In this document: in pieces, positions 1-56,918 of the stretch | Layout: every line of letters begins with the position of its first letter | How positions within the stretch are numbered: the stretch's first letter is position 1 | NCBI GenBank assembly: GCA_052327205.1 | Contig: CM126217.1 | Location: 84,196,001 to 84,260,000 of the forward strand | Length of the DNA: 64,000 nucleotides | Reading direction: 5' to 3' | Source of the DNA: Somniosus microcephalus | Lineage: Eukaryota | The notes under the pieces: model-generated | What the model saw: only the letters and a program-made list of their open reading frames with translations | Told to the model about the DNA's origin: nothing | The model's database searches: none | Made by a program: the position numbers and the translations under genes

Positions 1-159
1 CTGCTGTATACTGTAATACCGACGGTGACCACACCGGTATATAAGTGCTGTGTCAGGATTTATTGGGCAGATTCGCCCTGACCTTCGAATAGTAAAGTCC
101 TGTTAAAGTTACTCTTGTAGTCTGTGTATTAATTCGCCATAATACCTACAGACTTTACA
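1..159 (+). repeat. 5' LTR (partial) of element 1
   Basis: 159/159 match to 4311-4469 by eye; ends ...TTTACA; TATATAA at 38-44; AGTAAA at 91-96. Confidence 0.97.
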
Positions 160-160
160 G

Positions 161-170
161 TGGCGACGAG
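161..170 (+). promoter_or_regulatory. Primer binding site complementary to the 3' end of tRNA-Ser(GCU)
   Basis: TGGCGACGAG, 1 nt after the LTR; the same PBS or a 9-nt core occurs in elements 2, 3 and 5. Confidence 0.85.
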
Positions 171-1143
171 TTCGATCTTACCCTGCGGCAACAATACTTC
201 CGAAGCAGTTAATGAGCGTCGAGAAGAGGCACCCGCCCTCGTCGTTCTGCTGAGAGAAAACTCGAGTCTGCAGAGCAAGGAAGAAGGAAGAATTCAGACA
301 CGAAGCCTTCCATCAGCAACAGGCACTGATTGTCCCTTCTGCCATGGTGGTGAGTGAGCCGATCAGCACGAGAAGCAAGTCGGCCACGGTGACTGTGAGT
401 AAAGGGAAAATAAAAAAATAAACGGAGGATAAGGGCGGTGAACTCGACCACGGTCGGGGGAAAGGAGCCGGACAGAAGTTGGGCCCAGAGGCGCTGAGAC
501 TGGGGCAGCGTGGAGCACGGAAGCCGCGGTACAAGCGGGCTGGGAGACGCAACGGCGTCGTGAGACAGCTAGACCGCGATCGGCGAAAAAGGCCGGGCAG
601 CTACCGAGGCCACGAGGCGCTGCGACCGGGATCGTAAGGCGCGGGAAGATATAAAAATAAATAAATCACGGAGAACTCAGCCGCAGCCGGGGAGGAAAGC
701 ACCGGACTGCGAGAGGGCTGGGAGGCGCGATTGGAAGCTGCTGAGGGAGAGACAGAGCCCGAGCGAGCGGGAGAGACAGAGCCCGAGCGAGGGAGACTGA
801 GCGAGATCCAGCCCAGCGGCTGAAACTGTTCGCTGTCAACGGGTTGTACCCAGCGCCGGTTGCCCTGCCGAGAAAAGGGAACAAGGGACGCACTGAAGCT
901 GACGCGCAGGCTGCGAACCCCGAAAGCCAGCGGTCGTCGCCCGAGGGAAAAGCTTACCCCTCCCGCCAGGGGAAGAAACGCGGGAAGCCGCCAGTAGGCG
1001 GGGAAGACGACAGAAGCGGGAAACCGCCATTTTGAAAGTGGGCGGGGGAAGAAGACAAGCGCGGGAAACCGCCATTTTGAAAAAAAAAAGTTAAAGAAAA
1101 ATTTCGTGTTTGTTTCACAGAAAGATAGTGAGAGATAGTGAAG

Positions 1144-2310
1144 ATGCCTAAGCATGGTAACATCAACAACTTCGATTCCGAGGTGGAAGATTGGGCCACG
1201 TACGTAGAACGTATCGAGATATATTGTGAGGCCAATAAGATAGCAGATGATGATAAAGCTCTCACCTTATTAAACGCAATGGGGGCAAAGACATACGGGC
1301 TAGTGAAGCATCTTCTATCACCAGCTAAACCGGCGGATCAGACTTTCGCTAATATTGTTGCTGTCCAGAAGGATCATTTGAACCCCACACCACTGATGTT
1401 GGCGGAATGATTCAAATTCTATGCGAGAACGCAACGGAAAGAGGAAAGCAACGCGGAATACTTGGTCGAACTGCGTAGACTAGCGAAATACTGCCAGTTT
1501 GGGGAAAATCTGACAGAGGCACTGAGAGACAAGTTCGTGTGCGGGTTGTCGAAGGAAGGAACACAAAAGCGTCTGCTAGAAGAGAACGATCTCACACTTG
1601 ATAAGGCTGTCCTTATTGCAGCATCGCACGAAGCCGCAGCGAGAGGCACAGCGGAAATGTAGCTGAAGGCAGCGGTACTCAGTGTGGATCAAATTACTTC
1701 GGGTACATCGAAATGTTATCGTTGTGGGAAGACAACACACGACCAGAACCAATGCTGGTTTAAAAACCAAGAATGTAGAAAATGTGGCAAACTTGGTCAC
1801 ATAGCTAAGGTATGCCGGTCAGGAAAGAAGACCAACAACAACAAAAAAAAGTCACCGCAGGAAAAATACAATAAGGTACACAAGGTGGCTGAGAAGAGTT
1901 CAGATGAACAGAATTCGGATTCAGACCCAACCGTTCAGGAACTGGGTAGTCTGAGAATTCACAATGTGAGTAAGGAAGCTGACCTGCAAACTATCTGGGT
2001 CATGCTAAAAATAGCCGGAGTCCAAGTGAAAATGGAATTGGACACAGGATCAGCCCTATCCGTCATAAATCGAAGGGATTACAACCGGCTATTCTCACAC
2101 ATACCCTTGAGAGATACCAAGATCGTATTGCAGACATACACGGGGCAGAAAGTATACCCCATGGGAAAGATAAAAGTCAAGGTGAGAGACAGGGGCAAAG
2201 AACACCAAGGAATGTATTTATATGTACTACCTGAGGGAGGTCCACCACTTCTGGGGCGGGAGTGGATCTGGGAAATAAACATGGAATGGCACTATTTAAA
2301 AGCAATAATG
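1144..2310 (+). pseudogene. Gag-protease of element 1, one frame with two premature stops
   Basis: ORFs at 1138, 1462 and 1684 share one frame. Stops are TGA 1408-1410 (AE*F for AERF) and TAG 1660-1662. Motifs CYRCGKTTHDQNQC, CRKCGKLGHIAKVC, MELDTGS and PLLGREW. Confidence 0.93.
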
Positions 2311-2550
2311 AGTGAGAACTCGGTGAAGACAATCAGCTCAGACTCTGAAACGGATGACGATAAGACCAGCCCAGGTGCGAAAGACAAGTTTAAAATGGAC
2401 TTGCTGACTAAGGTTGGAAAAACGAAGGAGTGCATAAATGCTTATGCTTCAGAGGAGAACAAAGTTTCAGAACAGAATTCCACTGAACAACAACAACATA
2501 GTTTGACAGAGAATTCTGAGTCTGTCCAGTTTACAGATATGCACAATTCT

Positions 2551-2763
2551 GAGGAACACCGGGCTCGAACTCAACTCCATTTCAAATTACAACAGCAATT
2601 AGAACAATTGAGTTGCCGTCTCGAACAAGAGATGAAAGCAATGAAAAAGTTCTGTGACACAGAGTGGGAGAACCTGGAAAGACAACAGAAACAGCTGATG
2701 GAGAAAAAGGAGCAGGAGCACACAAACCGTCGGGGCAAGGAGGCCAAACGAATCAAAGCTGAT
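2551..2763 (+). pseudogene. STK10: Captured fragment of STK10(LOK)/SLK C-terminal coiled-coil (PKK) region, in frame with Gag-PR
   Basis: EEHRARTQLHFKLQQQLEQLSCRLEQEMKAMKKFCDTEWENLERQQKQLMEKKEQEHTNRRGKEAKRIK resembles recalled STK10 EEHRNQTQL...KKFFDTELENLERQQKQ and SLK KLQQQ...EQEHTNRLRDEAKRIK. Paralog assignment is uncertain. Confidence 0.8.
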
Positions 2764-2790
2764 TCGGTTTCAGAAGGTGCGTGCTTTAAT

Positions 2791-3450
2791 CTGGTGGAGC
2801 AAGAGGTTCAGCAACTGAAAGCGCTTGTTAGCGGATTGCAGGCAGAAAAGACTGATTTGGTCGCCATGAACTCCGAGCTCCTACTGAAGTTGGGTGCAGC
2901 ATCACCGGACGATTCAAGTGGGGAAATTCGAATGGTGGAGGCTGCGGATGATGGCGAAGTAGAAACAGCAAAGGAGCCCCAGGGCAAGGTTATAAACAGC
3001 CCTGCAGCTACTGGGAAACGTATGAGGTCAGAGGAGTTAACGGTCAGCCAACTCCTTCATATGCTGAAGGACAAGACTCTGAAATGGGAACAAATTGAAC
3101 AGGAGTTTAAATCTTCAAAGGAGAGGGGTTTGGAGCTCCCAAAAGTTATTGAAATAGCTGAGGTTGCAACACAGACTGAGAAGATGGCAGCAGAGCAACC
3201 CTTGGATGCCAAAAGTACGCTGACTCACGTCAATGTTGAACAACAGAAGGTTGAAACAGCTGCTGCAGTAGAGGGATTGAATAGTCCGATCAACCAATCT
3301 CCGAATGAAGTTGAAGTATTGAATCACAAATGACGTCATTAGTAAAAGACTTGCAGGAAGCCCAGAAAAAGCTGGATGAAGCTGGACGCCTGAAGAAGTC
3401 TCTTCAGGAAAGATGTCTGGATTTGGAACAAAAGCTGGCTAATGTCCAGC
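2791..3450 (+). pseudogene. OPTN: Captured optineurin central coiled-coil fragment, intronless, with a -1 shift at about 3330
   Basis: Collinear matches to recalled human OPTN: LQAEKTDL..SELLLKL (LQAEKADL..SELQLKL), DDSSGEIRM (EDSFVEIRM), EELTVSQLL (identical), ATQTE (ETQTE), EVEVLN..TSLVKDLQEAQKKLDEA..KKSLQERC (EVEALN..TSLFKELQEAHTKLSEA..KKRLQEKC). Confidence 0.9.
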
Positions 3451-3455
3451 TGGGT

Positions 3456-3752
3456 ATGGAGGAAATAGAAGACCCTCTCACTGGCCTAGCTCAAGATGAC
3501 ACCGAATATTACCATGACCTGTTGGACGACATCGAATATTACGATGACCTGTTCTGCCCAGCTTGTGATGAAAACTCCCAAAGTGCAGAAACCATGAAGA
3601 CTCACAAAAAGTCTAAGGAACATCGGGAGATGGTGGCGCTACTACGGAAAAAGGAGGACGAGAAGGAGGAACTGTGCATGCAGCTGGCAGCTGACAGTGG
3701 AGCCCAGAGAGTCTCCAAGAAGCAGAAAAGGAAAAGACGAAGCAGAAGATGA
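3456..3752 (+). pseudogene. DNAJC21: Captured DNAJC21 fragment (first C2H2 zinc finger plus basic tail)
   Basis: [35 protein letters not shown] vs recalled DNAJC21 [35 protein letters not shown]; downstream SKKQKRKRR vs SKKQKKKK. Confidence 0.88.
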
Positions 3753-4028
3753 TGATCATCTGGACCATCATCATCACTACTAGATCACGCACGGGGTCCC
3801 TTCGAACGGAGCCAAATCAGTTTGGAAGTAGAAAAACTTCCCAAGGTACTCAAGTTTTTACAAGCCAACAATGCTGGTTCAGAAGGACGGAAGTTCAAGC
3901 TGTTAAGTCCAGTGAAGGACTATTGGATGAGTCACTCCAGCAACGTGAACCGACTACACCACAGGGAACTGCTACACCACTGAGGTGTTGTCAGGACCGA
4001 GTCAAGAAGCACGGAAGGCGCATCCACC

Positions 4029-4138
4029 GAGATTGAATCTGTGAACTGTTTTCCGCAGAGACTGAATCTATGAACTGTTTCCCGCAGAGACTAAATCTGT
4101 GAACTGTTTCCGCAGAGACTACATCTGTGAACTGTTTT
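4029..4138 (+). repeat. About 29-30 bp tandem repeat, roughly 4 copies, in the 3' UTR of element 1
   Basis: Unit approximately GAGACTGAATCTGTGAACTGTTTCCCGCA. Confidence 0.9.
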
Positions 4139-4213
4139 AACATGAAGTTGGATATATGTTATGATGTTATGTTTAATGGGGAATAAGTATGTTGTAAGCT
4201 AAAAAGGGAGGAT

Positions 4214-4469
4214 TGTAGTGTATGTAACTGTTCTACCTTTAAGAGAATTATTGTATGTAACCGTTCACCTTTAAGAGAACTATTTTAGGTGTGGCACTAC
4301 TTTATCTTGGCTGCTGTATACTGTAATACCGACGGTGACCACACCGGTATATAAGTGCTGTGTCAGGATTTATTGGGCAGATTCGCCCTGACCTTCGAAT
4401 AGTAAAGTCCTGTTAAAGTTACTCTTGTAGTCTGTGTATTAATTCGCCATAATACCTACAGACTTTACA
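4214..4469 (+). repeat. 3' LTR of element 1 (256 bp, TG...CA)
   Basis: Starts TGTAGTGTATGTA directly after the PPT; ends TTTACA. Confidence 0.95.
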
Positions 4470-5550
4470 GTTGACACACTTGCATTGGAACAGTGGAGTC
4501 TGCAGTTGATAAAGGCACAGATGAGTTTTTCAGCAGCAGATGTGCTGAGGTAAGGCTGGAAGCAGGCAATGTTATGGAGGTGGAAATAAGCAGCATTTGT
4601 GATGGTGATAATATGGGGTCAGAAACTTGGCTTAGGATCAACCAGAACACTGAGGTTGTAAACAGTCTGAGACAGTGACCAGGGACAGCAATGGAGTTGG
4701 TCATGAGGTTACAGAGTTTGCACTAGAGGCTTAAGACAATAGGAAATGGTAGCTCATCCAAGACTGGATGTTGGGCAAGTAGACGGATAGCATAGCAGCA
4801 ACAGAAGGGTCGAGGCAGTGGTAGGTAGGTAGTGTTGAGTGTCATTAGCATACATGTGGAAGCTCACCCCAAGTTTACAAAGGATGTCAGCAAGGGGCAG
4901 CATGTAGGTGAGGAAGAGGAGGAGGCTGGCCAAGGATGTATCTTTGGGGGACTTTTAAGGTAACAGTGCTGGGGTGGGATGAGAAGCCATTGCTAGAGAT
5001 GTTCTCTCTACGATTGGATAGGTAAAAGTGGAACCAAGTGGGGGCCGTTCCACCGAGTTAGACAATGGAGGAGAAGTGTTGGAGGAGGATAGTGTGATCG
5101 TCCATGTCAATGGCTCAGAGAGTTTGAGGAGGGATAATGCACCACAATAACAATCACAGAGAATGTCATTCATGAATTTGGTTAGGGCTGTTTTGGCGTT
5201 ATGGGACGGGCAGAAACCTGATTGCAGAAATTCAAAGAGGGAGCTGTGGTAGAGATGGTTACAGATCTTTGTGGTGACTATACATTCAAGAACGTTGGAG
5301 AGGAAGAGAAGCTTGAAGATGGGATGGTAGTTAGCTAGGACAGAGTGATCAAGGGTGTTTTTTTGGAATTTGGGGTTGATGGCTGTTTTGAAAGGAAGGG
5401 GGATAGTGCTTGAGGTGAGGGGACTATTTACAGTGTTAGCCAGCATGGGGACCAGGAAGGGTGAATGGTGTCAAGGGAGCAGGGGATCAGTCTCATGGAT
5501 GAGATTAACTTGGAGAGGGCTTGGAGTAATGGGGGAGAAACTAGAGCGGG
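4470..5550 (-). mobile_element. Degenerate L2-clade LINE ORF2 (RT) fragment adjoining element 1
   Basis: Minus-strand translation has L2-type RT motifs (FKTA.I.P..KNTLD..LANYHPI..L.FLS.VLE; QSGF.P.H..TAL....NDIL) with many disruptions. Confidence 0.8.
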
Positions 5551-10562: not shown

Positions 10563-11212
10563 CGAAATCGGCATTTAATGAGGTGATAATTGGCTCAAAA
10601 TGGGGTCGGTAGATGTATCGCAATATTACCGCCAAAGCTCATAGACACCGATATTTGTACAGGGAGCTATTGCTGGGTGGCCAGAGCACCCACCTGGTTC
10701 AGTTGGTAGGCCCTCTTTTAAGCCCTCTTTCATTCAGTAAGTGACAACATAACTATACCCATAGTGAGACCATCCAAGAAGCTATCAGTACTGGTTTACA
10801 ACACTTGGGGAGGGATGGGGAGGGTAATTTTAACCGCACCCGCCTGGCAGGGAGCTAACTAGATCGGCTCAGCTGCTAGTGTAACACCCTGTCCGATTTT
10901 TATTTTCCATTGACTTCAACAGAAAGTAAAATCGGGCTGGGTGTAAAACGGGTCCCATCAGTTTCCAGTCAAGTGGGTTAGGTTAACATTAGTGTTATGT
11001 CCGACATTGGGGATAGGTACTAGATTGCCTTGGCCTGAGCACATGAAGTTTGATAGTGCTGTTATCATTATATTATGTCTGACATTGGATATAGGTATTC
11101 GATTGCTTTTGCCTGTAAGAGTGTGGTTGCATCAGCCATTAAAAGCGACATGAGTTAAGTTCTACATACGGCCTCTGGATTATCTTTGCAAACGCAACAT
11201 TTGGCGACGAGG

Positions 11213-14200
11213 ATGGCTGAAATCTCTCTTCCACCAACTCCTCCCTTCCTTGCACTACCTGGTGAGCCCCCGATCCCATGGGTTCGCTGGTTACAGTCCT
11301 TTGAAACCTACCTCATCACTCTCGGACTAGAAAATGTGAGAACAGCACGGAAAAAGGCACTGTTATCCCATTGCTTGGGAGCGGAGGGCCAGCGTGTTCT
11401 TGGGACATTAGGCACAGCAGACTCAATTCAAACATATGATGTGGCTGTGGCTCTGTTAAGCACACACTTCTCTGCCCCACAAAGTGCCCTCCTGCGGCGA
11501 TTCATTTTTAGACAGCGTCACCAACTCCCCGGCGAGCCTGTGCATCAATACATGACTAATTTGAGGGGGTTAGCTAGCTCGTGCAAGTTCGGTGCACTAC
11601 AAGACGAGATGGTGCGTGATCAACTAATAGAGCACACCAACAACGTGAGAGTGCACGAAAGACTGTTACTCGAGTCCGACGATCTGTCGTTGTCACAGGC
11701 AGTTAACATTGCCTTTCAAGTGGAGTCTGCAGCCGAATGTGCAGTGAAACTAGCACACACACCCAGTGACAGTGCCCTCGGCCCCGACAGCTCTGACACA
11801 GTAATGCTCGCGCGACGGCAGCAACGCGCGCTACCGCGGCAACAGTGTGGAAACTGTGGATCTCGTTCACATGCTACCAGAGCGCAGAATTGCCCCGCAC
11901 GTGGCCAAGCCTGTCGCAATTGTGGAAAACAAAATCACTTTGCCAATGTCTGCCGCTCTGCCCCTGTTGCTACAAATGAACACTCTCAGTCCTCAAGCAC
12001 TATAATTCACAACGTGAGCTCTGGGCCAGTAGTGGCTTTCAAGTCATGCACAATTAACCTGAATGATGTGTGCATCCCTCTGTTGTTGGATACTGGTGCC
12101 AGCGTCTCACTGCTGAATGTGGACACATTCAAACATTTTTTCAGCTCCCTGCCACTCTCTGCGCCCTCCACTGCCCTTTGCGGGTATGGTAATTCGAAAA
12201 TTGGACTAGTGGGTTCAGTCAACTTCACTGTACGCTATGGAACAAAAGTTTTGCCAGATTTTTGTTTTCATGTGGCACGCCAAGGAGCTAACCTGATGGG
12301 ACTGGATCTTTTCACTGACCTGGGTTTTTCTCTCTTGGACACCGGCGGGTCTGCGATTCTGCACGTCACCTCACCGTGGCGCCAAACATGGCCAGCATTC
12401 TTCGAGGGTCTGGGCTGCCTGACTGCCTTCACCCACCAGCCCATGGTTGACTCCACCGTTACCCCTGTCATTCAGCCACTGCGCCGCATCCCGCTTGCTC
12501 TCCATGACAGGGTCACAGCTAAACTAAAGCAGCTACTGGAAGCTGGCATCATCGAACCAGTTGATGCCTCCCTATGGGTCTCCAACCTGGTGGTCGCAAA
12601 GAAAAAGTCAGGTGGTCTACGCATCTGTGTCGATCTTTGAGCAGTTAATAAGGCCGTAATCCCTGACAAATATCCACTGCCTACGTCAGAGGAACTCACA
12701 GCGCAGTTCTATGGTTCCGTCCTGTTCTCGAAACTGAACCTTCGACAGGGCTATCTACAGGTTCCCCTCCACCCCAGCAGCAGGGACCTCACTGCTTTTG
12801 TGACACATGCTGGCATCTTTCGGTACACCAGGATGCCATTTGGACTTAGCTCTGCACCCAGCTGCTTCCAAAAGGTGATGTCCTCTATGCTCGCGGGCAT
12901 TCCTGGGGTGGCCATCTACCTGGATGACATCGTCGTGCATGGGCCCTCGACCTCCACTCACGATGAACGCCTTCACAGAGTTTTCACGGCTCTAGCAAAA
13001 CACAAGCTCACACTGAATGGCGAAAAGTGTGTCTTTGCTGTTTCAGAGATCGAATTTGTGGGGTTTCGGTTGTCGGCTGACGGTATATCCCCACTCCAGT
13101 CAAACGTGGATGCCATTCACAGCATCCCAGAACCCAGCTCTGCAGCACAGGTTGCCTCCTTCCTTGGCATGACTGGGTACTACCTGAAGTTTTTGCCCCA
13201 GTACTCAGCCACCACAGCCCCACTGCGCCAGCTCCTGTGAAAGAATGAGCCCTGGGTGTGGTCACAAGCCTGTACGGAAGCTGTTCGCCTCCTCAAATTG
13301 CAGCTCACGTCGCCTCCAGTGTTGGCTCACTTTGATGTCGCCAGCCCCACCCTCGTCACCTGCGACGCGTCCGCTGCAGCTGTGGGGGCAGTGTTATCAC
13401 AGGTACAGAATGGAGTGGAGAAACCAATCGCCTTTGCCTCCCGAGCCCTTAGCCCCACGAACAGAAGTACTCAGCAGGCGAGCGTGAGGCGCTGGCGTGC
13501 GTCTGGGCATGTGAGCGGTGGCACCTGTACACGTATGGCCGTGCCTTCACCCTGCGAACCGATCACCAGGCTCTCACTGCCCTGCTGTCGACATCCGGCA
13601 TGGGCCACAGACCACTGCGTCTACACCGCTGGTCTGACCGCCTCCGCCAATACAATTTCAGTCTCCAGTTCACACCAGGATGTGACAATGTTGTTGCAGA
13701 TCTGCTCTCCCGCACTGTCTCTGCCCCAGCCCCACTCGTCGGGTTTGAACATGTGGAACAGGATATCGTCCAGATGCTGCACACGCCTCTCCAAACCACA
13801 GTCTCTCTCCAGGAGCTCATAGAGGCCTTTGAACAGGATCCGGCCCTCTCTCAGCTGTGCACCTTCATCAGAGATGGCTGGCCTCACAAGGTGCCTGAGG
13901 AACTGTCTGCCTACTCCAGAGTTAAAGAGGAGCTCTCCTGCTGGAATGACTCCTGTATTGCACGTGGGCTCTGCACTGTGGTCCCAAGTGCCCTTTGTGC
14001 GCGTGTTTTATCCATGGCACACGAGGGCCACTTGGGCATAGTGAAGCTCAAACAACGATGCCGAGACCTAGTGTGGTGGCCGGGTATCGACAGGGAAATC
14101 GAGCCCCTGGTCAAGGACTGTGCAGCCTGCCTTGTAAGTGGCAAGACTGGCCACCAAGCTCCTCCACCCCTGCAACCCCTTGCCTGGCCCTCTCAGCCCT

Positions 14201-15312
14201 GGAAGCACCTGCAATTGGACATCTGCGGGGAGATCCATGGTGTCCCCCACCATCAACGGTTCCTAGTGGTGACCTATGATCTGCACTCAAAATTGCCAGA
14301 GGTCACTGCCGTGGGCTCCGTCACCTCTCGGGTCATCATCGATATCCTTGAGTCCCTCTTCTCCCGCTGGGGGCATCCAAAGGCCATCACCACAGACAAT
14401 GGCCCCCAAATGGTCTCTTTGGAACTCTCCTCTTACCTTGAGAGCAAGGGCATCCATCACATACACACATACCACCCCAAGTCAAATGGGGGGGTGGAGC
14501 GTTTTAATCAGACACTGAAAAATGGCCTCCGAGCAAACCTATCCCAGGGGTGTGCGTTTGACAAGGCCCTCCTCCACACACTGCTGCACTACAGAGCCTC
14601 CCAGCATTCCACTACAGGGGTCTCACCCGCATCCCTCATGCTAGGCCATGAGCTCATGCTGCCCCTTGGTAGGCTCCGCCCCTCGCTAGCTCAGAGCCCT
14701 GCTCCACGGGCTCAAGCCACAGTCGCTAGACAGCAGGAGAAGATGAAACTCCGCTTCGACCAGTCGAAGAGGGCCAAGGCGCCCAACATCTCAGTCTCCG
14801 ATTGGGTCAGAGTCCGCAGGCCTCACCGCAACAATAAGATGGCCTCATTCTGGTCCTCCCCTCTCCAAATCAGCCGCCAACTTGGACCAACCACTTTCTG
14901 CCTCACTGACGGCTCTCGGTGGCATGCCAGCCGCCTTCGGAAGGTGCCAGCACCCCCTGATGCGGGATTACACGGATCTAATCCCCAAGCCTTACCCCCA
15001 GAGTGGCGGGATGCACATGTGGCTCAGCCAGCCAACCCTCAAGCAGATATTGTGCCTCAGCCAAAACCTCACCAGTCCCCACCTCGGCTTGCTCCTCCCC
15101 AGTCCCCACCTCGGCCTGTTCGTCACCAGTCCCCACCTCGGCCTGCTCCTCACCAGTCCCCACCTCGGCCTGCTCTTCACCAGTCCGCACCTCGGCCTGC
15201 TCCTCACCAGTCCCCACCTCGGCCTGCTCTTCACCAGTCCGCACCTCGGCCTGTTTGTACACGTTCTCGCCCTGGCCACCTACAGGACTTTGTCACCACA
15301 TTTCATGTTTGA
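11213..15312 (+). pseudogene. gag-pol of element 2 (2xCCHC, PR, RT YLDD, RNase H, integrase) with stops and frameshifts
   Basis: ORF pieces 11186-12640, 12800-13240, 13256-, 13600-15312; motifs LDTGA, YLDD, CDAS, HEGH..C..C, TDNG, VERF. Confidence 0.93.
15067..15252 (+). repeat. 30-bp tandem repeat, about 6 copies, encoding a Pro-rich (HQSPPRPAP-like) integrase tail
   Basis: Repeated CCTCACCAGTCCCCACCTCGGCCTGCT-type units. Confidence 0.9.
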
Positions 15313-15848
15313 AATTCTGTGAGGGGGGAGGAAATGTTTTGTCTGACATTGGGGATAGGTACTCGATTGCCTTGGCCTGAGCACATGAAGTTTGATAGTG
15401 CTGTTATCGTTATATTATGTCTGACATTGGATATAGGTATTCGATTGCTTTTGCCTGTAAGAGTGTGGTTGCATCAGCCATTAAAAGCGACATGAGTTGA
15501 GTTCTACATACGGCCTCTGGATTATCTTTGCAAACGCAACAATTAGGCCTTTGGAATCGATCAACCTCCTTATAAAGGAACACCTTCATTAAGCTGATCT
15601 ATTGAGGAATGAGGTTGAATAGTAGAAGTGACATTCTATTTAAATATTCATTTGAGTTTTGGTCCAGGAAGAATGCAAAACCTTTTACTTTGATTTTTTT
15701 TTTCCCTGTAAAAATCAGTTAAGTAATTTAGGCATCATTGAGGATATGGGATAACCATCAAACTGAGCCCCGATTTAAGCTCAGAGTTTTGATTGTTTAA
15801 TTTGTTTTGGTTCAGTGTATATTTTAATTAGGTAACAGAGTGCGGGCA

Positions 15849-18800
15849 TGTAGTGTATGTACCTTGAAGAAGGAACTATATTCTGCAGCCCCTGTATACT
15901 GCAATACCAGTAGTGACCACCCCGGTATATAAGCCTGTATAGTAGTTCCAGTTTTGTCTCCATTCAGTAAACAACTGTTATAACCAACTTCTGCAGTCCG
16001 TGTCTCAATTACACACGGACGTTACACTGGCGACGAACAGGTCCGAACTTACCTACAGTTCTGCATCACCTCACGGGGATCCATCTCTGAAGCGAAGTTG
16101 TTAGGGGTCGAGGCCAGAAGGAAGAAATCCAAAAAAGAAAAAAAAAACAAACAGAAGAAACGGGTGTCGACCGTGGGCAACCGCCCTCTGATTCATCAAA
16201 TTCGAAGATTTGCAGGAGAGGCTGTCGAGAGCTGGGCTTGGTTATCCAGTCTATGGTGTTCCAGCTAATCGGGCTGGTGGCAGGTAGTACACCGATCCTT
16301 CCTGGGCTGCGGCTGGCTAGAGCTCGATCGGGTGGCTTTTCAACGGGGCCGAGCAGCGTTGTCGGGAAGAGGAGAGAGAGAGAGAGAGGGTGGAGCACAC
16401 AGGGCGCGGCCGGTGCTACGAAGCCAGGCAGCGTACAGACCCGAGAAGAGGGAGGAAAGTGTCCCATAGGGTCTGCTCCGACGACGGGAACAGTAATTAA
16501 AATAAGAGAAATTAGAAGCGCAGAAAGCCGCGAGGAGCTGCAGTTTGCCACGGGGACCGCGGAGAACGGCGTTGGCAGCAGCGCGGGGGGGAAGTGCGCG
16601 AAGACCATAGGGCGTCGCCATCAAGGCATAAAAATGCCAGCAACAGCGCTAGCAGCAGTGGAAAAGACAGAAAGCGCGGGAGGCGCCATCTTAATCCAGC
16701 GGGGAAGAAGGCAAAGCGCGGGAGGTGCCATTTTGTTCAATCGGGGAAGAAGGCAAAGCGCGGGAGGCGACATCTTAGATCTCCAAGATGCCGAAGACTG
16801 GCAATATCACTGCCTTCGATAATGCAATAGAAGACTGGACCACGTATGTGGAAAGAGTCGAAGTATATTGCAAGGCAAATGAAGTAGCCGATGAGAAAAA
16901 GGCATCGGTACTACTAAACTTAATGGGCGCAAGAACGTACGGCCTATTGCGGAACCTGATCACTCCAGTCAAACCGATGGCGAAGAGTTTTAATGAAATT
17001 GTTGATATCCTACAGGAACACCTAAATCCTACAACGCTGCTGATAGCAGAAAGATTTAAATTCCACAAGAGAAATCAGCATAAAGATGAGAGCAATGCTG
17101 ATTACCTTATGGAACTACGCAAGCTATCAAAGCACTGCCAGTTCGGAGCAGGCCTGGCAGATACCCTACGGGACAAATTTGTCTGTGGACTCCTGAGTGA
17201 AGGAACCCAAAAGAGGTTACTCTAGATAAGGCTTTCAGCGTGGCAGTATCGTACGAAGCAGCAGCAAGGGGAGCTGCGGAAATACAGCAAAAGCCACAGG
17301 AATACGGCACCCATGAAATGACACGGGGATTTGAAAAATGTTATCGCTGCGGCAGAACAACCCATGACCAGAAGGACTGCTGGTCCAAGGAAAAAACATG
17401 CAGGCAATGCGGAAAGATGGGACACATTGCACGAGTTTGCAGGTCCGGGAAGAAGACTAACGACAACAAAAAGACTACTAAGGAAAAGTACAGGAAAGTA
17501 CAAAAGATGACGGACAGTAGTTCCGAAGACCAGAAGAGCGATAGTGAATCCGGGAACAAGAGACTAAGCTGTCTCAAACTACACAACGTAATCACAAAAG
17601 AGGATCACCGAACCATTTGGGTCACCCTCACGATAGCAGGGTCCCAAGTCAAAATGGAATTGGATACAGGATCAGCCCTGACTGTCATGGATCGACGAGA
17701 CTACGAGCGGCTATTCTCACACATACCCTTGAAAGACACATCCATTGTCTTGAAGACATATACGGGGCAGAAAGTATACCCCAGAGGGAAAATAAGGGTG
17801 CCTGTCGAATACAACGGCAAGGAAATACAGAAATTGTATCTGTACATACTGCAAGATGGTGGACCACCGTTATTGGGATGTGAATGGATCAGAAAGATAA
17901 GTTTAGACTGGCACTTCATTCAGGCACTGACGGTGGCTGGTAAAAAGGATGACGATGTCACACCTGGACGATTGTCAAAAATCTTGGCTAACACTAAAGA
18001 GGTATTTCAACAAGAACTGGGAACTCTTAAAGGCGTAAATGCCTCAATAAAAATAGAAGAGAATGCAATTCCTAAGTTTTTCAAAGCAAGACCGGTACCG
18101 TATGCAATTCGCCCAGCCGTCGAGGCAGAGCTGGAGAATCTGGAGAATGCAGGTGTGTTAAGTAAGGTAGACTGGAGCAAGTGGGCGACACCCATTGTTC
18201 CTGTCATGAAGAAAACGTTAAACAATAAGTCTGAGGAGCCAAGGAAGGTTCGCATCTGTGGGGACTTCAAGGTGACTGTGAACCCAGTCCTTCACACAGT
18301 ACAGTGTCCTCTTCCGAGGATAGAAGATATTTTCGCCTCACTATCTGGAGGGAAACGTTTTACAAAAATTGACCTAGCGCAAGCATATTTGCAGATGGAG
18401 GTTGAAGAATCCTCTAGGAAATATCTCACGATAAACACTCACAAAGGTCTTTACCAGTATAATCGACTGGTATTCGGAGTTGCATCAGCTCCGGCTATAT
18501 GGCAAAGAGCGATGGAACAAGGCCTGCAAGGGATTCCGGGGACTCAGTGTTACTTGGACGACATCCTAGTGACGGGTGAAAATGACAGTGAACACCTTGC
18601 CAACCTAGAGCAGGTGCTCACTAGACTAAGAGAACATGGGCTACGAGCCAATCGCCCCAAGTGCGAGTTTTTTAAGAAACAAATATCGTATTGTGGCCAC
18701 GTGATTGATGAAGAGTGGTTACATAAGTCCCCTGACAAAATTGAAGCGGTAGTTAAGGCTCCAGCGCCTGAAAATGTGTCGCAACTGAGGTCATTCCTCG

Positions 18801-21016
18801 GATTGGTGAATTACTACCATAAGTTTTTGCCGAATTTGTCCACAATTCTGCACCCACTGAACGCCCTGCTACAAACTGGAGTAGCATGGAAATGGAGCGA
18901 TGAATGTAAGCGGGCCTTTCAGAAGTGTAAAGGCCTGATCACTTCAAGACAAATATTGGCTCACTACAACCCATCACTACCGATAAGACTGGCGTGTGAT
19001 GCGTCTTCCTACGGCGTTGGAGCGGTACTGTCACATAAATCCCTTGATGGTTCAGAGAGGCCGATAGCTTTTGCGTCATGCTCGTTAACTGCAGCGGAGC
19101 GTAACTACACCCAGATTGACAGAGAGGTCCTCAGCCTGGTGTGGGGGGTGAAGAAGTTCAATCACTACCTGCACGGACAGAAATTTACTCTACTAACTGA
19201 TCATCAACCTCTTGTCTCCATTTTCAACCCTAAGAAGGGCGTCCCGATAATGACCGCACAACGGCTACAGAGGTGGTCCCTTTTCCTAGGGGCACACCAA
19301 TATGACATCGAGTACAAAGGAACTAAACAGCATGGGAATGCTGATGGATTGTCGCGCCTACCGTTGCCGACGGTGGAAGAAGCACCTGCAGTGGATCCTG
19401 TGGAGATATTCTACTCGACCATAGTCGAATGTCTACCTGTGATGAATGCAAACATAGAAAAGGAAACACGAAATGACCCGACACTCTCCAGGGTCTATGA
19501 TTTAACGGTGAAGGGATGGCCAGCACATGGCGAACCACTGTTGCCAGCATTCTCGCCGAGAAGAGAACAGCTGTCAGTGTGCCGAGGAACCATGATGTGT
19601 GGATCCAGAGTAGTAATTCCGCCCAAATTGAAGGATAGAGTGCTCAATGAGCTTCATGAGGGTCATCTGGGAGGGGTAAAAATGAAGAACTTAGCCAGAG
19701 CGTTTGTGTGGTGGCCGGGAATCGATAGAGAAATCGAAGAGATGACCAAGAGCTGTACAGGATGCCAGAAGGTCCAAAACGCCCCACCACAAGCCCCTCT
19801 ACATCCATGGGAGTGGCCCTCATCTCCATGGCAAAGGGTACACATTGATTTTGCTGGTCCATTTATGGACTCAATGTTTTTAATTGCGGTGGATGCACAT
19901 TTAAAGTGGCCAGAGGTAATAAAAATGTCCTCAACCACCACAGAAAAAACTATCACAGTCTTACGAACCATATTCGCCAGAAATGGGCTGCCTGAACAGA
20001 TTTGCTCCGACAATGGACCACAGTTTGTGTCTGAAGAGTTCTGGAGGTTCTTAAAGAACAATGGTGTTAAGCATTACACATCCGCCCCATATCATCCAGC
20101 CACCAGTGGATTGGCCGAGAGGTTCGTTCAAACATTCAAGAAGGCTATCAAGGCAATGTGTAATGAAGACATACCCCTACAACACAAGGTGGATAACTTC
20201 TTGTTTGCCTACCGGAATGCGACACATGCGGTTACCAACCAAATTCCAGCCATGATGTTCTTCAATCGAAGACTAAGATGCCGCTTGGATTTGGTTAAGC
20301 CAAACATCAGAAGAGATGTGGAGAACAGGCAGTTTCAGAATATGAATGAAAGGCCAACCAGGAGTTTTAAGATAGGTCAACCAGTTTTGGCCCGGGACTA
20401 CCGCACAGAGAAATGGCAGCCAGGAACGATCTGCACACGGCAAGGACCTCTAATGTATACCGTGGACGTTGGAGAGAGCATTGTAAGACGCCATGCTGAC
20501 CAGATTCTAGAGTCACTGGAAAACGTCAAATCTTCACCATGATCCTATACACCTGGTGATGAAACCGAAGTACCAATTACATCTACCTCAGAATCGGTGA
20601 TATTGGAAGCAGACGAACCAAACAACGACGTTGATCCTGAATCAACTTTGCCAGAAGAACCTGATACCCCAAAGAGGCGTTATCCGGACAGAATCAGGAA
20701 GCCTCCTCAAAGACTGAATTTATAATTGATTAACTTCAGCTAATGTATATCGCAACCGTAATTGTAAATATGTTATTTAATTATTAATCGAATGTTATGT
20801 ACTGTTTAGCTAAAAGGGGAGGAATTGTAGTGTATGTACCTTGAAGAAGGAACTATATTCTGCAGCCCCTGTATACTGCAGTACCAGTAGTGACCACCCC
20901 TGTATATAAGCCTGTGTAGTAACTTTGTATAGTAGTTCCAGTTTTGTCTCCATTCAGTAAACACCTGTTATAACCAACTTCTGCAGTCCGTGTCTCAATT
21001 ACACACGGACGTTACA
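15849..21016 (+). mobile_element. Full-length Ty3/Gypsy (Mag-like) LTR retrotransposon (element 3), related to element 1
   Basis: LTRs 15849-16026 and 20826-21016 (13-bp indel plus a few substitutions); TSD GGGCA; PBS TGGCGACGA at 16028; PPT before 20826. Confidence 0.97.
16788..20725 (+). pseudogene. gag-pol of element 3; frameshifting deletion at about 17222, then 1100-aa open NC-PR-RT-RH-IN, then a late stop at 20540-20542
   Basis: LDTGS, YLDD, ACDAS, HEGH/C..C, D-D-E (HIDF, SDNG, AERF); tail ...RKPPQRLNL*. Confidence 0.93.
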
Positions 21017-36898: not shown

Positions 36899-39800
36899 TG
36901 TAATGAAATCTGTTTGTCTTGCCTGTATCCGTTTTGCACTCATGTATATTACCCTCCCCCACACGGTGTATAGTTTCACTTCCTCTTTCCTGACTAACCT
37001 GGAAGGTTCCAGGTCTTGGGTCTTGGCTCTTGTCTCCGCCCCTGACTTCTCTTACTTAAAGATCTCAGGATCTGTATGACTCATTCCTGTGAGCCAGTCG
37101 GTGTGTTGAGATGTTAGCTCTGATCTTAGTGATTAAAAGCCAACTTGTTAAAGTCTATAACTTCTAGTTTTGTGGTTATTGAAGGCACATCAATTTTAAT
37201 CACTAAAGAATACTAGGATGGATCGACTCCTAAAACCAGAGCGTCTGGACTTGGATCCACATTCTGCTGAAGCATCAAATCAATTTGGACACTGGCTCAA
37301 ATGCTTCGAACTCTTCGCGAGGGCCTCATCCGCTAGCGAGGTAGATAAACTGAGTCTACTGACTACTCGCGTTAGTCATCGGATTTATTCGTTCATCCGG
37401 GACGCCACCTCTTACACGGAGGCCATCACTATCCTGAAGGCCCAATACCAGAGGCCAGTAAACTAAGTGTACGCCAGACATCTGCTGGCTACACGCAGGC
37501 AGCGACCTGAGGAATCAATGGACGATTTCTTACAAGGCCTAAAGGACTTGGTCCGGGACTGTAACTGCAAGGCCGTGACGGCCAACGTGTACTCTGACGA
37601 ATTGGTCCGCGATTCCTTCATCACGGGCCTCAAATCGAATTATATCCGGCAGAGACTGCTGGAGAAGGAGGTCCTGGACTTAAAAAAGGCAGTGGCCACT
37701 GCGCGATCGCTGGACGTGGCCCAGAAAAACTCTGACTCTTATTCTTCCGGCCATGCGGCCCTCAACGCCTCGTGCGCGCCGAGCGGGCCGCCATCTTGGA
37801 ATCGGCCATCTTCCCCATCCAGGTCTCAGACCAGCTCTACACCGCCGGAGTCCCCACACAGAAGTTCATCCAGGAGTCCTACTATAGCGGCAATGTCTCG
37901 AGGCCTGAAATGCTACTTCTGCGGCCAGGCCAAGCACCCCAGACAACGATGCCCAGCGAAGGATGCTACATGCTTCAAATGTAAGAAAAAGGGGCATTTT
38001 AGCAAAGTCTGCAGGGGGAATCCGATTTCCAACTCCGTCACCGCCTCGTGCGTGCCGTGCGGGCCACCATCTTGGGATCCACCATCTTTTCCCGACTCAA
38101 CGGCCGCCCAGGGCCCAACAGTGGCTTCGATCACGGTGGATCAATCCAGGCCACACCCGTTGACAAAATCCATGATGGACATACAGGTAAACGGGAATTT
38201 AACAAAATGTTTAATTGACTGTGGGAGTACCGAGAGTTTTATCCACCCTAGCCTGGTACGGCGGCACTCATTAACGGTAACCCCTACACGGAGCAGGATT
38301 GCTATGGCTGCTAAGCCCCACACTTCGGACATTTTGGGCTACTGTGTGGTAACACTGACTGTAAAAGGCACGGACTACAAGGATTTTAAACTCCTCGTGA
38401 TGCCAGAACTCTGTGTTAATGTAATCTTGGGCCTGGACTTCCAGTGCCACCACGAAAGTGTCACGCTAGCATATGGCGGGTCCCAGCCGCCACTCACAGT
38501 CTGTGGCCTATCAACCTTAAAAATCAGCCCGCCCTCTTTATTCGCTAATCTCGCTCCGAACTGTAGGCCCATAGCGACCAAAAGTAGACGGTACAGTCTG
38601 GAAGACAGACACTTTATCAAGGCGGAAGTGGACAGACTCCTGCGGGAAGGCATTATTGAATGCAGTACCAGTCCGTGGCGTGCCCAAGTAGTCATAGTTA
38701 AAAATAGCGAAAAGAAACGGATGGTAATTGACTACAGCCAGACTGTTAATATTTATACCCAGCTGGACGCCTACCCTTTACCCCGCATATCAGAAATGGT
38801 CAACCAGATTGCACAATACCGAGTCTTCTCGACTATCGACCTCAAATCCGCGTATCACCAGCTCCCCATTAGAACGGAGGACCGCACATACACCGCCTTT
38901 GAGGCGAACGGACGCCTCTACCATTTTCTCAGAGTGCCCTTCGGGGTAACAAATGGGGTCTCAGTCTTCCAACGTGAGATGGACCGCATGGTTGACGAGA
39001 ATAAACTACAAGCTACCTACCCCTATCTGGACAATGTCACTATCTGCGGGCACAACCAGCAAGACCACGATCTAAATCTTGCGAGATTTTTAAAAACTGC
39101 CCTAAAGCTGAATCTAACCTACAACGAAAACAAATGTGTCTTCAACACAGCCCGTCTCTGTATCCTCGGCTGTGTGGTGGAAGATGGGGTAATTGGACCG
39201 GACCCTGACCGATTACACCCCCTAAAGGAACTGCCCCTGCCACACAATCCCAAAGCTTTAAAAAGGTGCCTGGGATTTTTTTCGCATTATGCCCAATGGG
39301 TGCCCAATTACTCTGATAAGGCCCGACCCCTCATTAAATCGACGTCCTTCCCACTATCAGCTGAAGCTCGGGAGGTTTTCACCAGTATCAAACAGGACAT
39401 TGAAAGGGCTGCACTGTGTGCAGTGGACGAAAGCATCCCTTTCAAGTCGAAAGCGATGCGTCAGACTTTGCCTTAGCTGCGACCCTCAATCAGGCTGGGA
39501 GACCTGTGGCCTTCTTCTCCCGAACCCTTCAGGGACCTGAAATCAGGCACTCTTCTGTCGAGAAGGAGGCACAGGCTATAGTGGAGGCAGTGCGGCACTG
39601 GAGACACTACCTAGCCGGCAAACGTTTCACCCTGCTCACTGACCAGCGGTCGGTGGCTTTCATGTTTAATAACAAAGGGGGAAAATCAAGAATGACAAAA
39701 TACTCAGGTGGAGGATCGAACTATCCACGTTCGACTATGATATTATGTACAGGCCGGGAGCCCTTAATGAACCCCCAGACGCCCTATCGCGGGGAATGTG

Positions 39801-41251
39801 TGCCAGCATTCATACGGACAAATTACAGGGTCTCCACAACGACCTCTGTCACCCAGGGGTCACCCGACTATACCATTTTATAAAGTCCCGCAATCTGCCC
39901 CACTCCACCGAGGAGGTCAGGGCAATGACCAGAGCCTGCCGCATCTGTGCGGAATGCAAGCCTCGTTTCTACAGGCCTGACCGTGCACACCTTATCAAAG
40001 CCACACGGCCATTCGAGCGCCTAAGTCTGGACTTCAAGGGACCCCTTCCCTCTGCCGACCGTAACGTATACTTCCTCAATATCATCGATGAATATTCCCG
40101 CTTCCCCTTCGCCATTCCCTGCCCAGACATGACCAGTGCCACGGTCATCAAGTGTCTCGGTAATCTATTCTGCATGTTTGGCATGCCGAACTACATACAC
40201 AGCGATAGGGGGACGTCATTTATGAGTGACGAACTGCGCCAGTTCTTGCTCTCAAAGGGGATAGCCACTAGCAGAACCACTAGCTACAACCCCCGGGGTA
40301 ATGGGCAAGTGGAAAGGGAGAATGCTACTGTTTGGAAGGCTGTCACGTTAGCCTTAAAGTCAAAAGACCTTCCGACCTCCTGCTGGCAGGAAGTCCTCCC
40401 AGACGTGCTCCACTCCATAAGGTCTCTGTTATGTACAGCCACTAATGCTACCCCTCATGAAAAGATGTTCGTTTTCCCCCGGAAATCCACCTCGGGCATA
40501 TCTCTACCCGCGTGGCTGACGTCTCCGGGGACAGTACTATTGCGGAAGCACGTGAGAGGCCATAAAACGGACCCCCTTGTGGAAAAGGTACAGCTCCTCC
40601 ATGCAAACCCTCAGTACGCCTATATCGAATACTCTGACGGGCGAGAGGACACTGTTTCCATAAAAGACCTCGCTCCCTCGGGGAGCGGAGAGAACGATGA
40701 GAGACTACCCGAGGAAGACCTACACCAAAAAGAGACAGGATGCCCAGAGGTATCAATACCCAACTTTAACCTGGAGGACACTGCAGATAACCTGGAAGAC
40801 ACTGCGGAGGCCCGGACAGCGGAGGAACCAGAATCCACTCCCCTAGAGGCACCCCAACCGGCTTTGCGCCGATCACTGAGAACCGCAAAACCTCCTGACA
40901 GACTCACTTATACCAACTTTTAAGAAACATCACCCCGATGGACTAAATCTAAAGAAGGGGTGAATGTAATGAAATCTGTTTGTCTTGCCTGTATCCGTTT
41001 TGCACTCATGTATATTACCCTCCCCCACACGGTGTATAGTTTCACTTCCTCTTTCCTGACTAACCTGGAAGGTTCCAGGTCTTGGCTCTTGGCTCCGCCC
41101 CTGACTTCTCTTACTTAAAGATCTCAGGATCGGTATGACTCATTCCTGTGAGCCAGTCGGTGTGTTGAGATGTTAGCTCTGATCTTAGTGATTAAAAGCC
41201 AACTTGTTAAAGTCTATAACTTCTAGTTTTGTGGTTATTGAAGGCACATCA
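36899..41251 (+). mobile_element. Full-length Ty3/Gypsy LTR retrotransposon lacking a tRNA PBS (element 4)
   Basis: LTRs 36899-37192 and 40965-41251 (7-bp indel, few substitutions); TSD GAAAG; PPT AAAGAAGGGGTGAA before 40965. Confidence 0.97.
37218..40923 (+). pseudogene. gag-pol of element 4 with one stop (37464-37466) and frameshifts near 39440 and 39680
   Basis: 2xCCHC, LIDCGS protease, YLDN RT motif, ESDAS RNase H, integrase H..H..C..C and D-D-E (SLDF, SDRG, VERE). Confidence 0.92.
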
Positions 41252-55100: not shown

Positions 55101-56918
55101 CCAGCTCTGCTTCTACTGAAGGGCGAATTGCATAAGGCACTGGTCTGGCCTTGTGGAACTTTGGATTTGCGTTCTCCTCAATCTTAATTTTTGCTTTCAT
55201 GCCCTTAAGTGTTCCTATTCCCTTCTTGAACACTTCCTGAGAGTCAGAGAGTATTTGTGACAGTCTCTCAGGAGTGGCGTTGCTGTCCTCCTTTGCTGAC
55301 ACAAACAGTGCTTGGATGGTGTGCCAATCCAACTGTATTTTCCTGAGCTATTCGCGTCCCAACAATGGTGGTCCTCCATTTTTCAGTACATAGAGGTTCA
55401 ATTGCGGTATTTTTTTTTCTTTGTATGTCACTGTCACTTTTATTTTACCTTTGGGGCACACTCTTTGTCCTGTGTATGTCTTTAACAGTACTTTAGTTGG
55501 CCTTAGCGGTATGTGTGAAAACAGTCGTTTGTAGTCATGTACAGAGATCACTGTTAAAGCTGAGCCTGTGTCCAACTCCATTTTCAGCCTAACTCCTGCT
55601 ACTTCTGGAGTAACCCATATTATTCTGTGATCCCCTGTCTCTTTCACACTGTGTAGTTTTAGACAAGCCAGATCCTCTTCCTCTGAGTCTGTCACTTTTT
55701 TCTTTATCTGAACTGTCTCCAGTCATGTGGTGTACCTTCTTGTATCTATCTTTGAAAGGTTTCTTGTTTTCAGTCACTTGATGTACCTTTTTGTTACTCT
55801 GTATTGTATCAGTTTTCTGCTTCTTATTTGCTTTGCAGACTCTTTCAATTTGCCCTCGTCTGCCACATTGTTTGCAGTCTTTATCTTTAAACCAAGTGTC
55901 ATTGTGGTCATGTGACATTTTGCCACAGTGATAGCACTTCTTTTCTTGTTTCAGTGACATTTTATTAGTTGAATATTCCAGGGATTTTTGTTGAATTTCT
56001 AAAGCGCCACGTGCTGCTGCTTCCATTGATATTGCAATACTCAGAGCCTTCTCCAATCTGAGGTCTTTTTCAGACAGGAGCTTCTTTTGTGTGCTTTCAC
56101 TTTGCATGCCACACACAAATCTGTCCCTCAATGCGTCTGATAAGCCCACTCCAAATTGGCAATGTTCTGATAATTTGTGCAACTTTGCCAAATATTCAGA
56201 AATGCTTTCATTTTTGCTCTGGTTCCGTTTATGGAATTTAAATCTTTCGGCTATGAGCAGTGGTTTGGGGCTTAAATGGTCTTGGAGTGTGTCCACTATT
56301 TGTTTGAATGTTTTGTTTGCTGGCTTTTCAGGGGTTAATAAACTACGTAGCAGCCCATATGTCTTTGCACCCATAACACTCAGCAAAACAGTGGCTTTCT
56401 TTTCTACCTCCACTCCGTTAGCCTCACAGTACAACTCCACTCTTTCAATGTAAGTTACCCAGTCTTCAATGCTGCTATCAAATGCTGCAATCGTGCCAAT
56501 CATCACCATTTTTTTTCCAAACCCGTTTTTCTTTCTTTACTAGTTAGCTAGCGTCATGCAAGTCCTGTGCACTTTTCACTTGACTTACGTATCCCCTGCC
56601 TAGCTTAGCAAGCGTGCTCCATTTTCTCTACCTTCTCGCTCCTTTCTTCCAAATTTCGGTGTCCTCTGGATGCGATGCCAGAATAGGAAGACGTAGGTTC
56701 ATAATTCTCGTCGCCAATTTGTTGTGTTTGTACCGCTATACACAACTACATAAAATAATAAAGCAGCAGAGACTGAGAGTAACTTCAAGTGATCTTTACT
56801 GGGTAACTGGAACTTCGGCACTGACTATACAAATCGATACGCGTCTGTTATATACGCTCGCAACTAAGGATGTACATCCGCAAAACAAAGTAGTCCCTTC
56901 AATGTTGTATACATTACA
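52148..56918 (-). mobile_element. Full-length Ty3/Gypsy (Mag-like) LTR retrotransposon, decayed (element 5)
   Basis: LTRs 56720-56918 (5') and 52148-52348 (3'); TSD GATGG; PBS at 56707-56716; PPT at 52349-52363. Confidence 0.97.
52495..56509 (-). pseudogene. gag-pol of element 5 with a frameshift (about 55695), two stops and an integrase D->G change (CTGNG)
   Basis: ORF pieces 55589-56509, 55348-55695, 53596-55332, 52495-53595; protein closely similar to element 3. Confidence 0.93.

Follow-up and report, generated by a model that had tools for sequence, protein, structure and literature searches.

We identified a young Gypsy LTR element at positions 1-4469 of the window (the whole 64,000-nt stretch of shark DNA analysed here), in which a cargo derived from the host genes STK10, OPTN and DNAJC21 sits where pol should be. 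The arrangement of the sequence suggests that the founding cargo of its family most likely came from an STK10 circular RNA (circRNA) by template switching. Overall, we consider it probable that this is a non-autonomous Gypsy family that is mobilised in trans, was founded by a circle, has since swapped modules and carries its host sequence as open-frame filler.

All features described below lie on the forward strand. The two LTRs are 256 bp each and show 1 difference between them. Positions 1-159 are the last 159 bp of the 5' LTR, which begins 97 bases upstream of the window, and LTR comparison places the 3' LTR (TG...CA) at 4214-4469. A 5-bp target duplication, GTTGA, flanks both ends of the element (downstream copy at 4470-4474). 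A primer-binding site starting with TGG (161-170), whose place and sequence are common to the autonomous parent by alignment, presumably matches tRNA-Ser, and the sequence contains a polypurine tract at 4201-4212. With TG...CA LTRs, target duplication, primer-binding site and polypurine tract all present, the element belongs to the Ty3/Gypsy LTR retrotransposons. The 5' leader (171-1143) is 80-87% like that of the parent. It is followed by gag (1144-1998), with two CCHC knuckles at about 1714-1818, and by an aspartyl protease (PR) with a DTG motif (1999-2306), supported by Pfam and by alignment; the knuckles and the primer-binding site would fit the Mag clade. Pfam revealed no reverse transcriptase (RT), RNase H or integrase core in the element (P0121 and L035 were checked), and the family is non-autonomous because it lacks these enzymes. 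Only an integrase C-terminal tail remnant, recognised by parent alignment, is left at 3947-4052. The earlier note's description of a Gypsy element with its pol replaced is thus confirmed.

The same note named the three host genes rightly and gave the order of the pieces, but its bounds need revision: the cargo starts at 2310 with an overlooked STK10 block, OPTN spans 2754-3466, and a last STK10 block had been missed. Block a (2310-2554; 91% DNA identity to host) is part of the proposed circle's host exon 2 (aa ~403-478), and block b (2551-2762; 88-90%) corresponds to its host exons 4-5 and encodes the PKK coiled coil (Pfam, E 1e-12). The OPTN piece runs through six host exons without introns at 82-94% identity. 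Sequence comparison identifies a short STK10 remnant (MEEIED; 3456-3473) that joins it to the DNAJC21 piece (3474-3734), where a zinc finger of the C2H2 (JAZ) type is indicated by Pfam and protein matches. The reading frame closes at 3752. Block c (3735-3951), assigned by host alignment, holds the end of the circle's host exon 1 and the start of exon 2, and lies after the stop and out of frame in the window's subfamily. These upstream exons set downstream read as a trace of the circular order. The top named protein matches to the cargo are shark STK10 (80%) and optineurin (66%), and every named top match of the zinc-finger part is DNAJC21 (best E 7e-11); a PDB search gave weak optineurin matches only. 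A CGNL1 piece in a related subfamily is 91% identical to the shark protein. All captured pieces code for coiled coil or zinc finger, and a single-sequence fold prediction for the cargo consists of long helices at low confidence (pTM 0.28). Compared with the host loci, the STK10 and OPTN cargo is intronless and lies between two LTRs, as in LTR-mediated retrocopies. The host OPTN gene was located through its NEMO domain. A PF21884 match was rejected as host DNAJC21, the gene found being DNAJC2; the zinc-finger exon was absent from the 20 kb fetched at the located host DNAJC21 gene.

The founding cargo is found in a sister subfamily: there, five exons of STK10 follow one another in a circular permutation with an exact back-splice junction, making one full 1,245-nt turn. 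This exact donor-to-upstream-acceptor junction occurs at 14 fetched loci, in two of them with a one-base change. All 12 STK10-only copies match the doubled circle over 1,259 nt (a single turn and the motif described below; 98.9-99.2% identity), or over less where they have deletions, and none of the 12, aligned within the doubled circle, contains host sequence from outside it. The cargo is entered and left at one short motif common to both ends of the parent pol. No exact match between circle and parent pol is longer than the 12 nt at the 5' switch point, and the parent integrase tail carries the motif found there. Microsimilarity amounts to 12 nt at one end of pol and 6-8 nt at the other, to 8 nt at each end of OPTN and to 4 nt at an STK10 deletion; the PR-to-STK10 deletion is out of register. 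The permuted exons, back-splice junction, single turn and shared motif are the reasons for which we favour a circRNA copied by template switching. In the window copy the back-splice junction has been overwritten by OPTN and the permuted exon order alone survives. A literature search returned no paper naming circSTK10, and junction reads in RNA could derive from element transcripts rather than from a host circRNA.

The autonomous parent is abundant, with 14,718 motif matches in the genome. Parent L065 encodes one PR-RT-RH-IN frame in an order that fits Ty3/Gypsy and shares 87% identity with the window element over gag-PR; the autonomous parent and the STK10-only form share 98%. Intermediates survive at loci L026, L027, L023 and L024-L034. 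Modules are interchangeable or deleted among subfamilies (OPTN, CGNL1 or none), and L023 is missing most of gag and PR; the subfamilies other than the window's came from protein searches, which favour open frames.

We propose that this parent moves the family in trans. Within a particle, RT copying parent RNA would have left the integrase tail for a co-packaged STK10 circular RNA, jumping at the short shared motif; the structure is visible in the copies, and the template is what we infer. The enzyme would then have made one lap of the 1,245-nt circle, crossing the back-splice junction, and returned at the identical motif to the start of the RT region, replacing RT-RNaseH-IN in frame. RNase H may have destroyed the template behind RT and so forced its exit after one lap; the motif matches both pol ends, so one exact turn is also possible from homology alone, without such forcing. 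DNAJC21 and then OPTN or CGNL1 would have been acquired at homologies of 4-8 nt, with spliced mRNAs as donors, while parts of STK10 were deleted and the family recombined with parent subfamilies; the intermediates are extant and their order is our reconstruction. Finally, the cargo may serve as translatable filler whose amino acids drift, and copies with the frame open over most of their RNA would be copied more, probably because such RNA escapes nonsense-mediated decay or packages better when translated. Of the serial template switching onto mRNAs that had been suggested earlier, capture from spliced RNA at short homologies holds, but the founding template appears to have been the back-spliced STK10 circle.

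The STK10|OPTN junction has 3,968 matches in the genome against 0 in a control; all 40 scored matches are 99-100% identical and lie on many contigs, and cargo of this type is also present in independent RNA runs, which were chosen by species label. Copies with the back-splice junction number at least 73, as judged from the intronless matches (73 of 99) that span a whole query from the middle of STK10. RNA covers all 30 bins, with one strand dominant in run X6, and 309 reads with 31 starts support an STK10-to-OPTN joint skipping 291 nt. Of five RNA cargo joints this alone was used as evidence: the 261 and 66 joints were dropped since host or STK10-only RNA could yield both, the 39 joint since it could stem from the older subfamily, and the 131 joint since it came from a single contig. 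The element is thus multi-copy and transcribed. An assembly chimera, the doubt raised in the earlier note, is so improbable that we regard it as refuted: the assembly does have small indel errors, and the host OPTN gene carries two extra bases in base runs, but the junction recurs across contigs and runs. The permuted STK10 order might instead go back to a linear RNA in which exons are repeated, through trans-splicing or tandem exon duplication, as the junction and the product would be identical. We judge this very unlikely, since each circle exon is single within the 26 kb of host STK10 locus fetched and exon repetition is generally much rarer than back-splicing; two independent captures from normal mRNA would not abut precisely at splice donor and acceptor sites. 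A circular template remains the preferred source.

The window copy cannot make the polyprotein because gag contains stops at 1408 and 1660. The second, -1 open reading frame once taken as a feature of the element results from a one-base frameshift at about 3322 that is private to this copy, all 19 other examined copies being one base longer there. The stops and the shift are damage of the window copy; 10 of the 19 others have a single 869-codon frame. The window's subfamily has lost the frame over the last ~100 codons, yet was amplified, and one subfamily regained the downstream frame through two compensating indels. The in-frame junctions, held earlier to be improbable by chance, are no 1-in-27 event, because 7-8 nt words shared between the captured coding sequences are in frame in 49-85% of cases. 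On the lineage of the window, the cargo has 45N:22S changes, which do not differ from the private neutral baseline (97:48, P=1.0); neither do those of the single pieces (STK10 18N:12S, OPTN 27N:10S; P above 0.5). Raw dN/dS against the host is 0.51-0.56 in the window subfamily and 0.32 when STK10 is taken by itself. This ratio disregards transition bias and change on the host branch, and we rejected values below 1 as a sign of selection, the signal being gone against the private-change baseline. A gag-PR dN/dS of 0.16 against the parent was likewise rejected as constraint inside the chimera, because the low value falls in stretches for which recombination with further subfamilies of the parent is the best explanation (8 autonomous copies sampled); on the window's own branch gag-PR is neutral (22N:15S, P=0.44). 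Purifying selection on cargo residues, as expected of a functional chimeric gene, was thus not detected against the private-change baseline. Since the residues evolve like neutral sequence, the selected Gag-PR-coiled-coil-zinc-finger polyprotein of the earlier note is unsupported, and the open frame alone looks preserved. Fixed simple indels within the frame are in frame in 6 of 6 cases, against 1 of 9 private ones (P=0.0014), and fixed indels that shift the frame are confined to position 3687 and beyond. Assembly errors in base runs may account for some of the private frameshifts, which would inflate this contrast; the absence of stops on the window's lineage is not significant by itself (P=0.25 for 67 changes).

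We therefore think it distinctly unlikely that a Gag-PR-cargo protein is selected for a function of its own, such as particle scaffolding, RNA binding or interference with parent or host. The coiled-coil and zinc-finger content, the predicted helices, the raw dN/dS, the transcription of the element and the compensating indels would suit such a protein; the neutral substitution counts argue against it, as do the swapping and deletion of modules, the loss of most of gag and PR in L023, and the LC3-binding motif (at its presumed location in OPTN), which is intact in the older subfamily and changed in the window's. It seems to us rather unlikely, too, that the cargo is under no selection at all, its frames being open through in-frame homologies at the switches and the youth of the families. 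The in-frame shared words, the neutrality of gag-PR and the damage already present in half of the copies are consistent with this, but it leaves unexplained both the compensated indel pair and the six in-frame indels in a lineage 8-12% diverged from the host. Moreover, 10 of 11 events were in frame (P 0.014-0.03 at a null of 0.55-0.6; a hand tally with possible ascertainment). We thus retain the open-frame filler model.

A single genome has preserved the circle, the parent, the two points of switching and the later intermediates, and these provide a precise, testable mechanism for the copying of circRNAs into genomes: co-packaging, a short-homology jump, one turn and a jump back. The family would be a base-by-base record of possible circRNA write-back to the genome, and would imply that germ-line retrotransposon particles take up host circRNAs. 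With its thousands of copies, it also exemplifies serial shuffling of domains among four genes that are unrelated to one another. Open-frame selection appears separable from protein selection, a caution against reading in-frame chimeras as new genes. Annotation of STK10, OPTN, DNAJC21 and CGNL1 and circRNA calling in these sharks will be misled by the copies. An unlikely but more far-reaching version is that one forced circRNA lap founded a frame-locked cassette sampling host coiled-coil modules, and that the Gag-PR-cargo protein is made, enters helper particles and favours its own RNA; if true, this would be the general entry route of circRNAs into genomes and a running exon-shuffling engine in shark germ lines.

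The family has parallels in several known systems. Acutely transforming retroviruses with gag-onc fusions have helper-dependent genomes, in which spliced sequence of the host, joined to gag, takes the place of pol. The shark family is likewise helper-dependent with spliced host cargo fused to gag, but has no env and shows no sign of selection on cargo residues. The maize element Bs1 was reportedly studied by Elrouby and Bureau (2001, 2010). Bs1 is described as an LTR element with a chimeric ORF from pieces of three cellular genes, present in 1-5 copies, with one piece out of frame, and interpreted as a host gene (PMC5131818, PMC13317346); the shark family, by comparison, is from an animal, has thousands of copies and a probable circle origin. 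Multi-gene capture within LTR elements was therefore already described, contrary to the earlier note (Bs1; Tan et al. 2016, PMC5131818). The latter report LTR-mediated retroposition that sets fragments of host mRNAs in place of internal ORFs by way of microsimilarities, often in frame, with multi-gene chimeras including a four-gene mouse case and further copying rounds. In the shark family, too, host pieces stand in place of internal ORFs at microsimilarities, and the cargo is multi-gene and recopied. Those loci are, as excerpted, young and single or low-copy, and the excerpted text makes no mention of a circular template, whereas the shark family probably began from a circle and is long-lived with serial cargo exchange. 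Mouse circRFWD2 pseudogenes carry a back-splice junction in 33 genomic copies near LTR sequence, with MMERVK10C-int marked in a figure; the LTR link of circRNA pseudogenes is an enrichment, and the mechanism was termed mysterious and left open (Dong et al. 2016, PMC4897178). The shark family also has a multi-copy genomic back-splice junction, but here the circle lies inside an intact LTR element, is exactly one turn long and in frame with Gag-PR, has descendants in thousands, and both switches are resolved against an extant parent. Precedents are thus known in Bs1, LTR-mediated retrocopies and circRFWD2 pseudogenes, and the shark case is unusually well resolved.

The element at window positions 1-4469 is a real LTR retrotransposon, as the earlier note held, and it is multi-copy. 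Its LTRs (256 bp each) differ at a single site, and a GTTGA target duplication, a primer site and a polypurine tract are present. Downstream of gag and protease, host-like sequence continues in the same frame. Pfam detected PKK and a JAZ-type zinc finger but no reverse transcriptase (RT), RNase H or integrase, and the best named protein matches of this cargo are shark STK10 (80%) and optineurin (66%), with DNAJC21 also matched, bearing out the proposed replacement of pol by three host genes. On the basis of these closest matches, we regard the host as a shark. The STK10|OPTN junction pattern has 3,968 genomic matches and its reversed control none. Two matches, at G000:C1:10173481 and 10177876, lie 4,395 bases apart on the same strand, possibly as a tandem element pair. 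A DNA search for copies returned 5,166 candidates; all 40 that were scored are 99-100% identical and spread over many contigs, and copies of the window form are about 0.6% apart. Comparison across 20 fetched loci showed that the second open reading frame at -1 described earlier reflects a one-base shift at ~3322 that is unique to the window copy and absent from the 19 others, 10 of which carry a single 869-codon frame. The window copy also has stops at 1408 and 1660. At the end of its integrase tail, a 29-nt unit is repeated four times in tandem (4023-4138), and unit number differs among copies. The window holds four other young Gypsy elements (10993-15544, 15849-21016, 36899-41251 and 52148-56901; LTR pairs 97-99% alike).

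Sister subfamilies were found by protein search, with 12 of 80 matches fetched. A query with the STK10 stretch missing from the window gave 99 matches, 73 of which span the whole query without introns. All 12 STK10-only copies fetched consist of gag-protease, a 20-residue RT start, STK10 residues 389-704, residues 291-388 and an integrase tail. Residues 291-704 of host STK10 are encoded by five consecutive exons, and in the element the end of the last exon joins the start of the first, the join falling precisely on the host splice donor and acceptor sites; this back-splice-type junction was seen in 14 fetched loci. Together the five exons measure 1,245 nt, which is divisible by three, and their frame contains no stop. 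When aligned with the doubled circle, each of the 12 copies covers 1,259 nt of it at 98.9-99.2% identity, and a single motif (coding LDE) marks both entry and exit. With the RT start of the parent it shares 12 nt, and none of the exact matches between circle and parent pol is longer; with the parent integrase tail it shares 6-8 nt (three tails read). The parent has the full PR-RT-RH-IN set of a Gypsy element, and its gag-protease is 98% identical to the STK10-only form; a motif search for the parent gave 14,718 matches. Two of the four other young Gypsy elements in the window (17201-20542, and 52495-56536 on the minus strand) show ~70% likeness to the parent family.

We propose that minus-strand synthesis would have left the parent integrase tail, circled a co-packaged circRNA once and returned to parent RNA. 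The founding cargo was very probably copied from a circular template: template switching onto co-packaged RNA, as first suggested, stands, but an ordinary linear mRNA as founding template does not accord with the exact back-splice junction and the single 1,245-nt turn. That RNase H forced the exit after one turn is plausible, at roughly even odds, but the motif homology by itself could produce an identical end point. The host STK10 circle, divisible by three in length and free of in-frame stops, could be translated in repeated laps. Among the introns of the host STK10 stretch, one carries a GC donor (L049:3683).

Later captures built on the circular founder. The OPTN piece covers six host exons without introns and stands where the back-splice junction was, with 8-nt homologies, in frame, at both ends. 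In the window, exon 1-2 STK10 sequence (3735-3931) sits downstream of exons 4-5, and this permuted order is the sole remaining trace of the circle. The older OPTN-bearing form is 84-88% like the window, its frame passing through a final STK10 block and on into the integrase tail. One sister form (L026) lacks OPTN, and another (L027, G000:C17:91.14 Mb) has CGNL1 in its place (91% to shark CGNL1); this coiled-coil piece of 217 residues, in frame within the STK10 cargo, is a fourth captured gene. A short form with an in-frame deletion (L023) runs from the first 100 gag codons straight into the end of OPTN and DNAJC21, all in frame (L023:1129-1812); this derivative has lost the capsid C-terminus, knuckles and protease. 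Divergence from the host rises from ~1% (STK10-only) through ~3% (older OPTN form) to ~9% (window form) although window-form copies are very similar, which points to error-prone copying over many rounds. In a protease-region tree with rough supports, the window form nests within most older OPTN copies; two of the older copies cluster with the parent, which we take as a sign of recombination. In the host OPTN gene as assembled (L053-L054), exons 3-4 of the captured stretch contain two additional single bases, ~25 nt apart in the mRNA, which, judged against captured copies and shark proteins, are probably assembly errors.

The earlier note argued for selection on the cargo protein, and raw dN/dS against the host (0.51-0.56) might suggest a functional product. 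However, cargo changes confined to the window lineage (45:22) match a neutral baseline (P=1.0), as do gag-protease changes (22:15, P=0.44). This baseline was drawn from changes unique to one of 20 DNA-ascertained copies, of which 97 are non-synonymous or stop changes and 48 are synonymous. Because both ratios match the baseline, no constraint on residues is visible, and a functional cargo protein is unlikely. Selection acting on the open frame only is somewhat favored: all six fixed simple indels inside the frame (+6, -3, -18, +6, -27, +30) are multiples of three versus one of nine private indels (P=0.0014), and the three fixed frame-shifting indels all lie at 3687 or later. Against this, zero stops among 67 changes would arise by chance with P=0.25, some of the private indels could be assembly errors, and protein search was the source of the older subfamilies. 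Moreover, homology favors in-frame junctions (in-frame share 0.49-0.85), which had been thought improbable by chance.

In two RNA runs that share a species label, not necessarily that of the window, reads covered 30 of 30 bins. In run X6 one strand dominates (depth 29-523 versus 1-91), which would be the sense strand under the usual library convention. An STK10-to-OPTN joint skipping 291 nt, impossible from any host gene, is supported in X6 by 309 reads with 31 start points and in X7 by 179 reads. At least half of the words sampled occur in sequencing runs carrying three species labels.

The observation was thus correctly spotted, and our explanation differs: the family, whose structure is almost certainly as described, is a circRNA-founded, helper-dependent Gypsy with serial in-frame cargo exchange. 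In a literature search covering few subscription journals, neither the shark family nor the capture of a single circRNA turn within an LTR element was reported. For circRFWD2, similar anatomy may appear in the supplements of Dong et al. and Tan et al. Passages of PMC5131818 and PMC13317346 cover Bs1. Tan et al. 2016 (PMC5131818) describe LTR-mediated retrocopies, including multi-gene ones, with circles unmentioned in the passages available, and Dong et al. 2016 (PMC4897178) report back-spliced pseudogenes near LTR sequence, leaving the mechanism open. In passages of PMC5408686, the link between circRNA and LTR-retrocopy ideas is no more than a suggestion.
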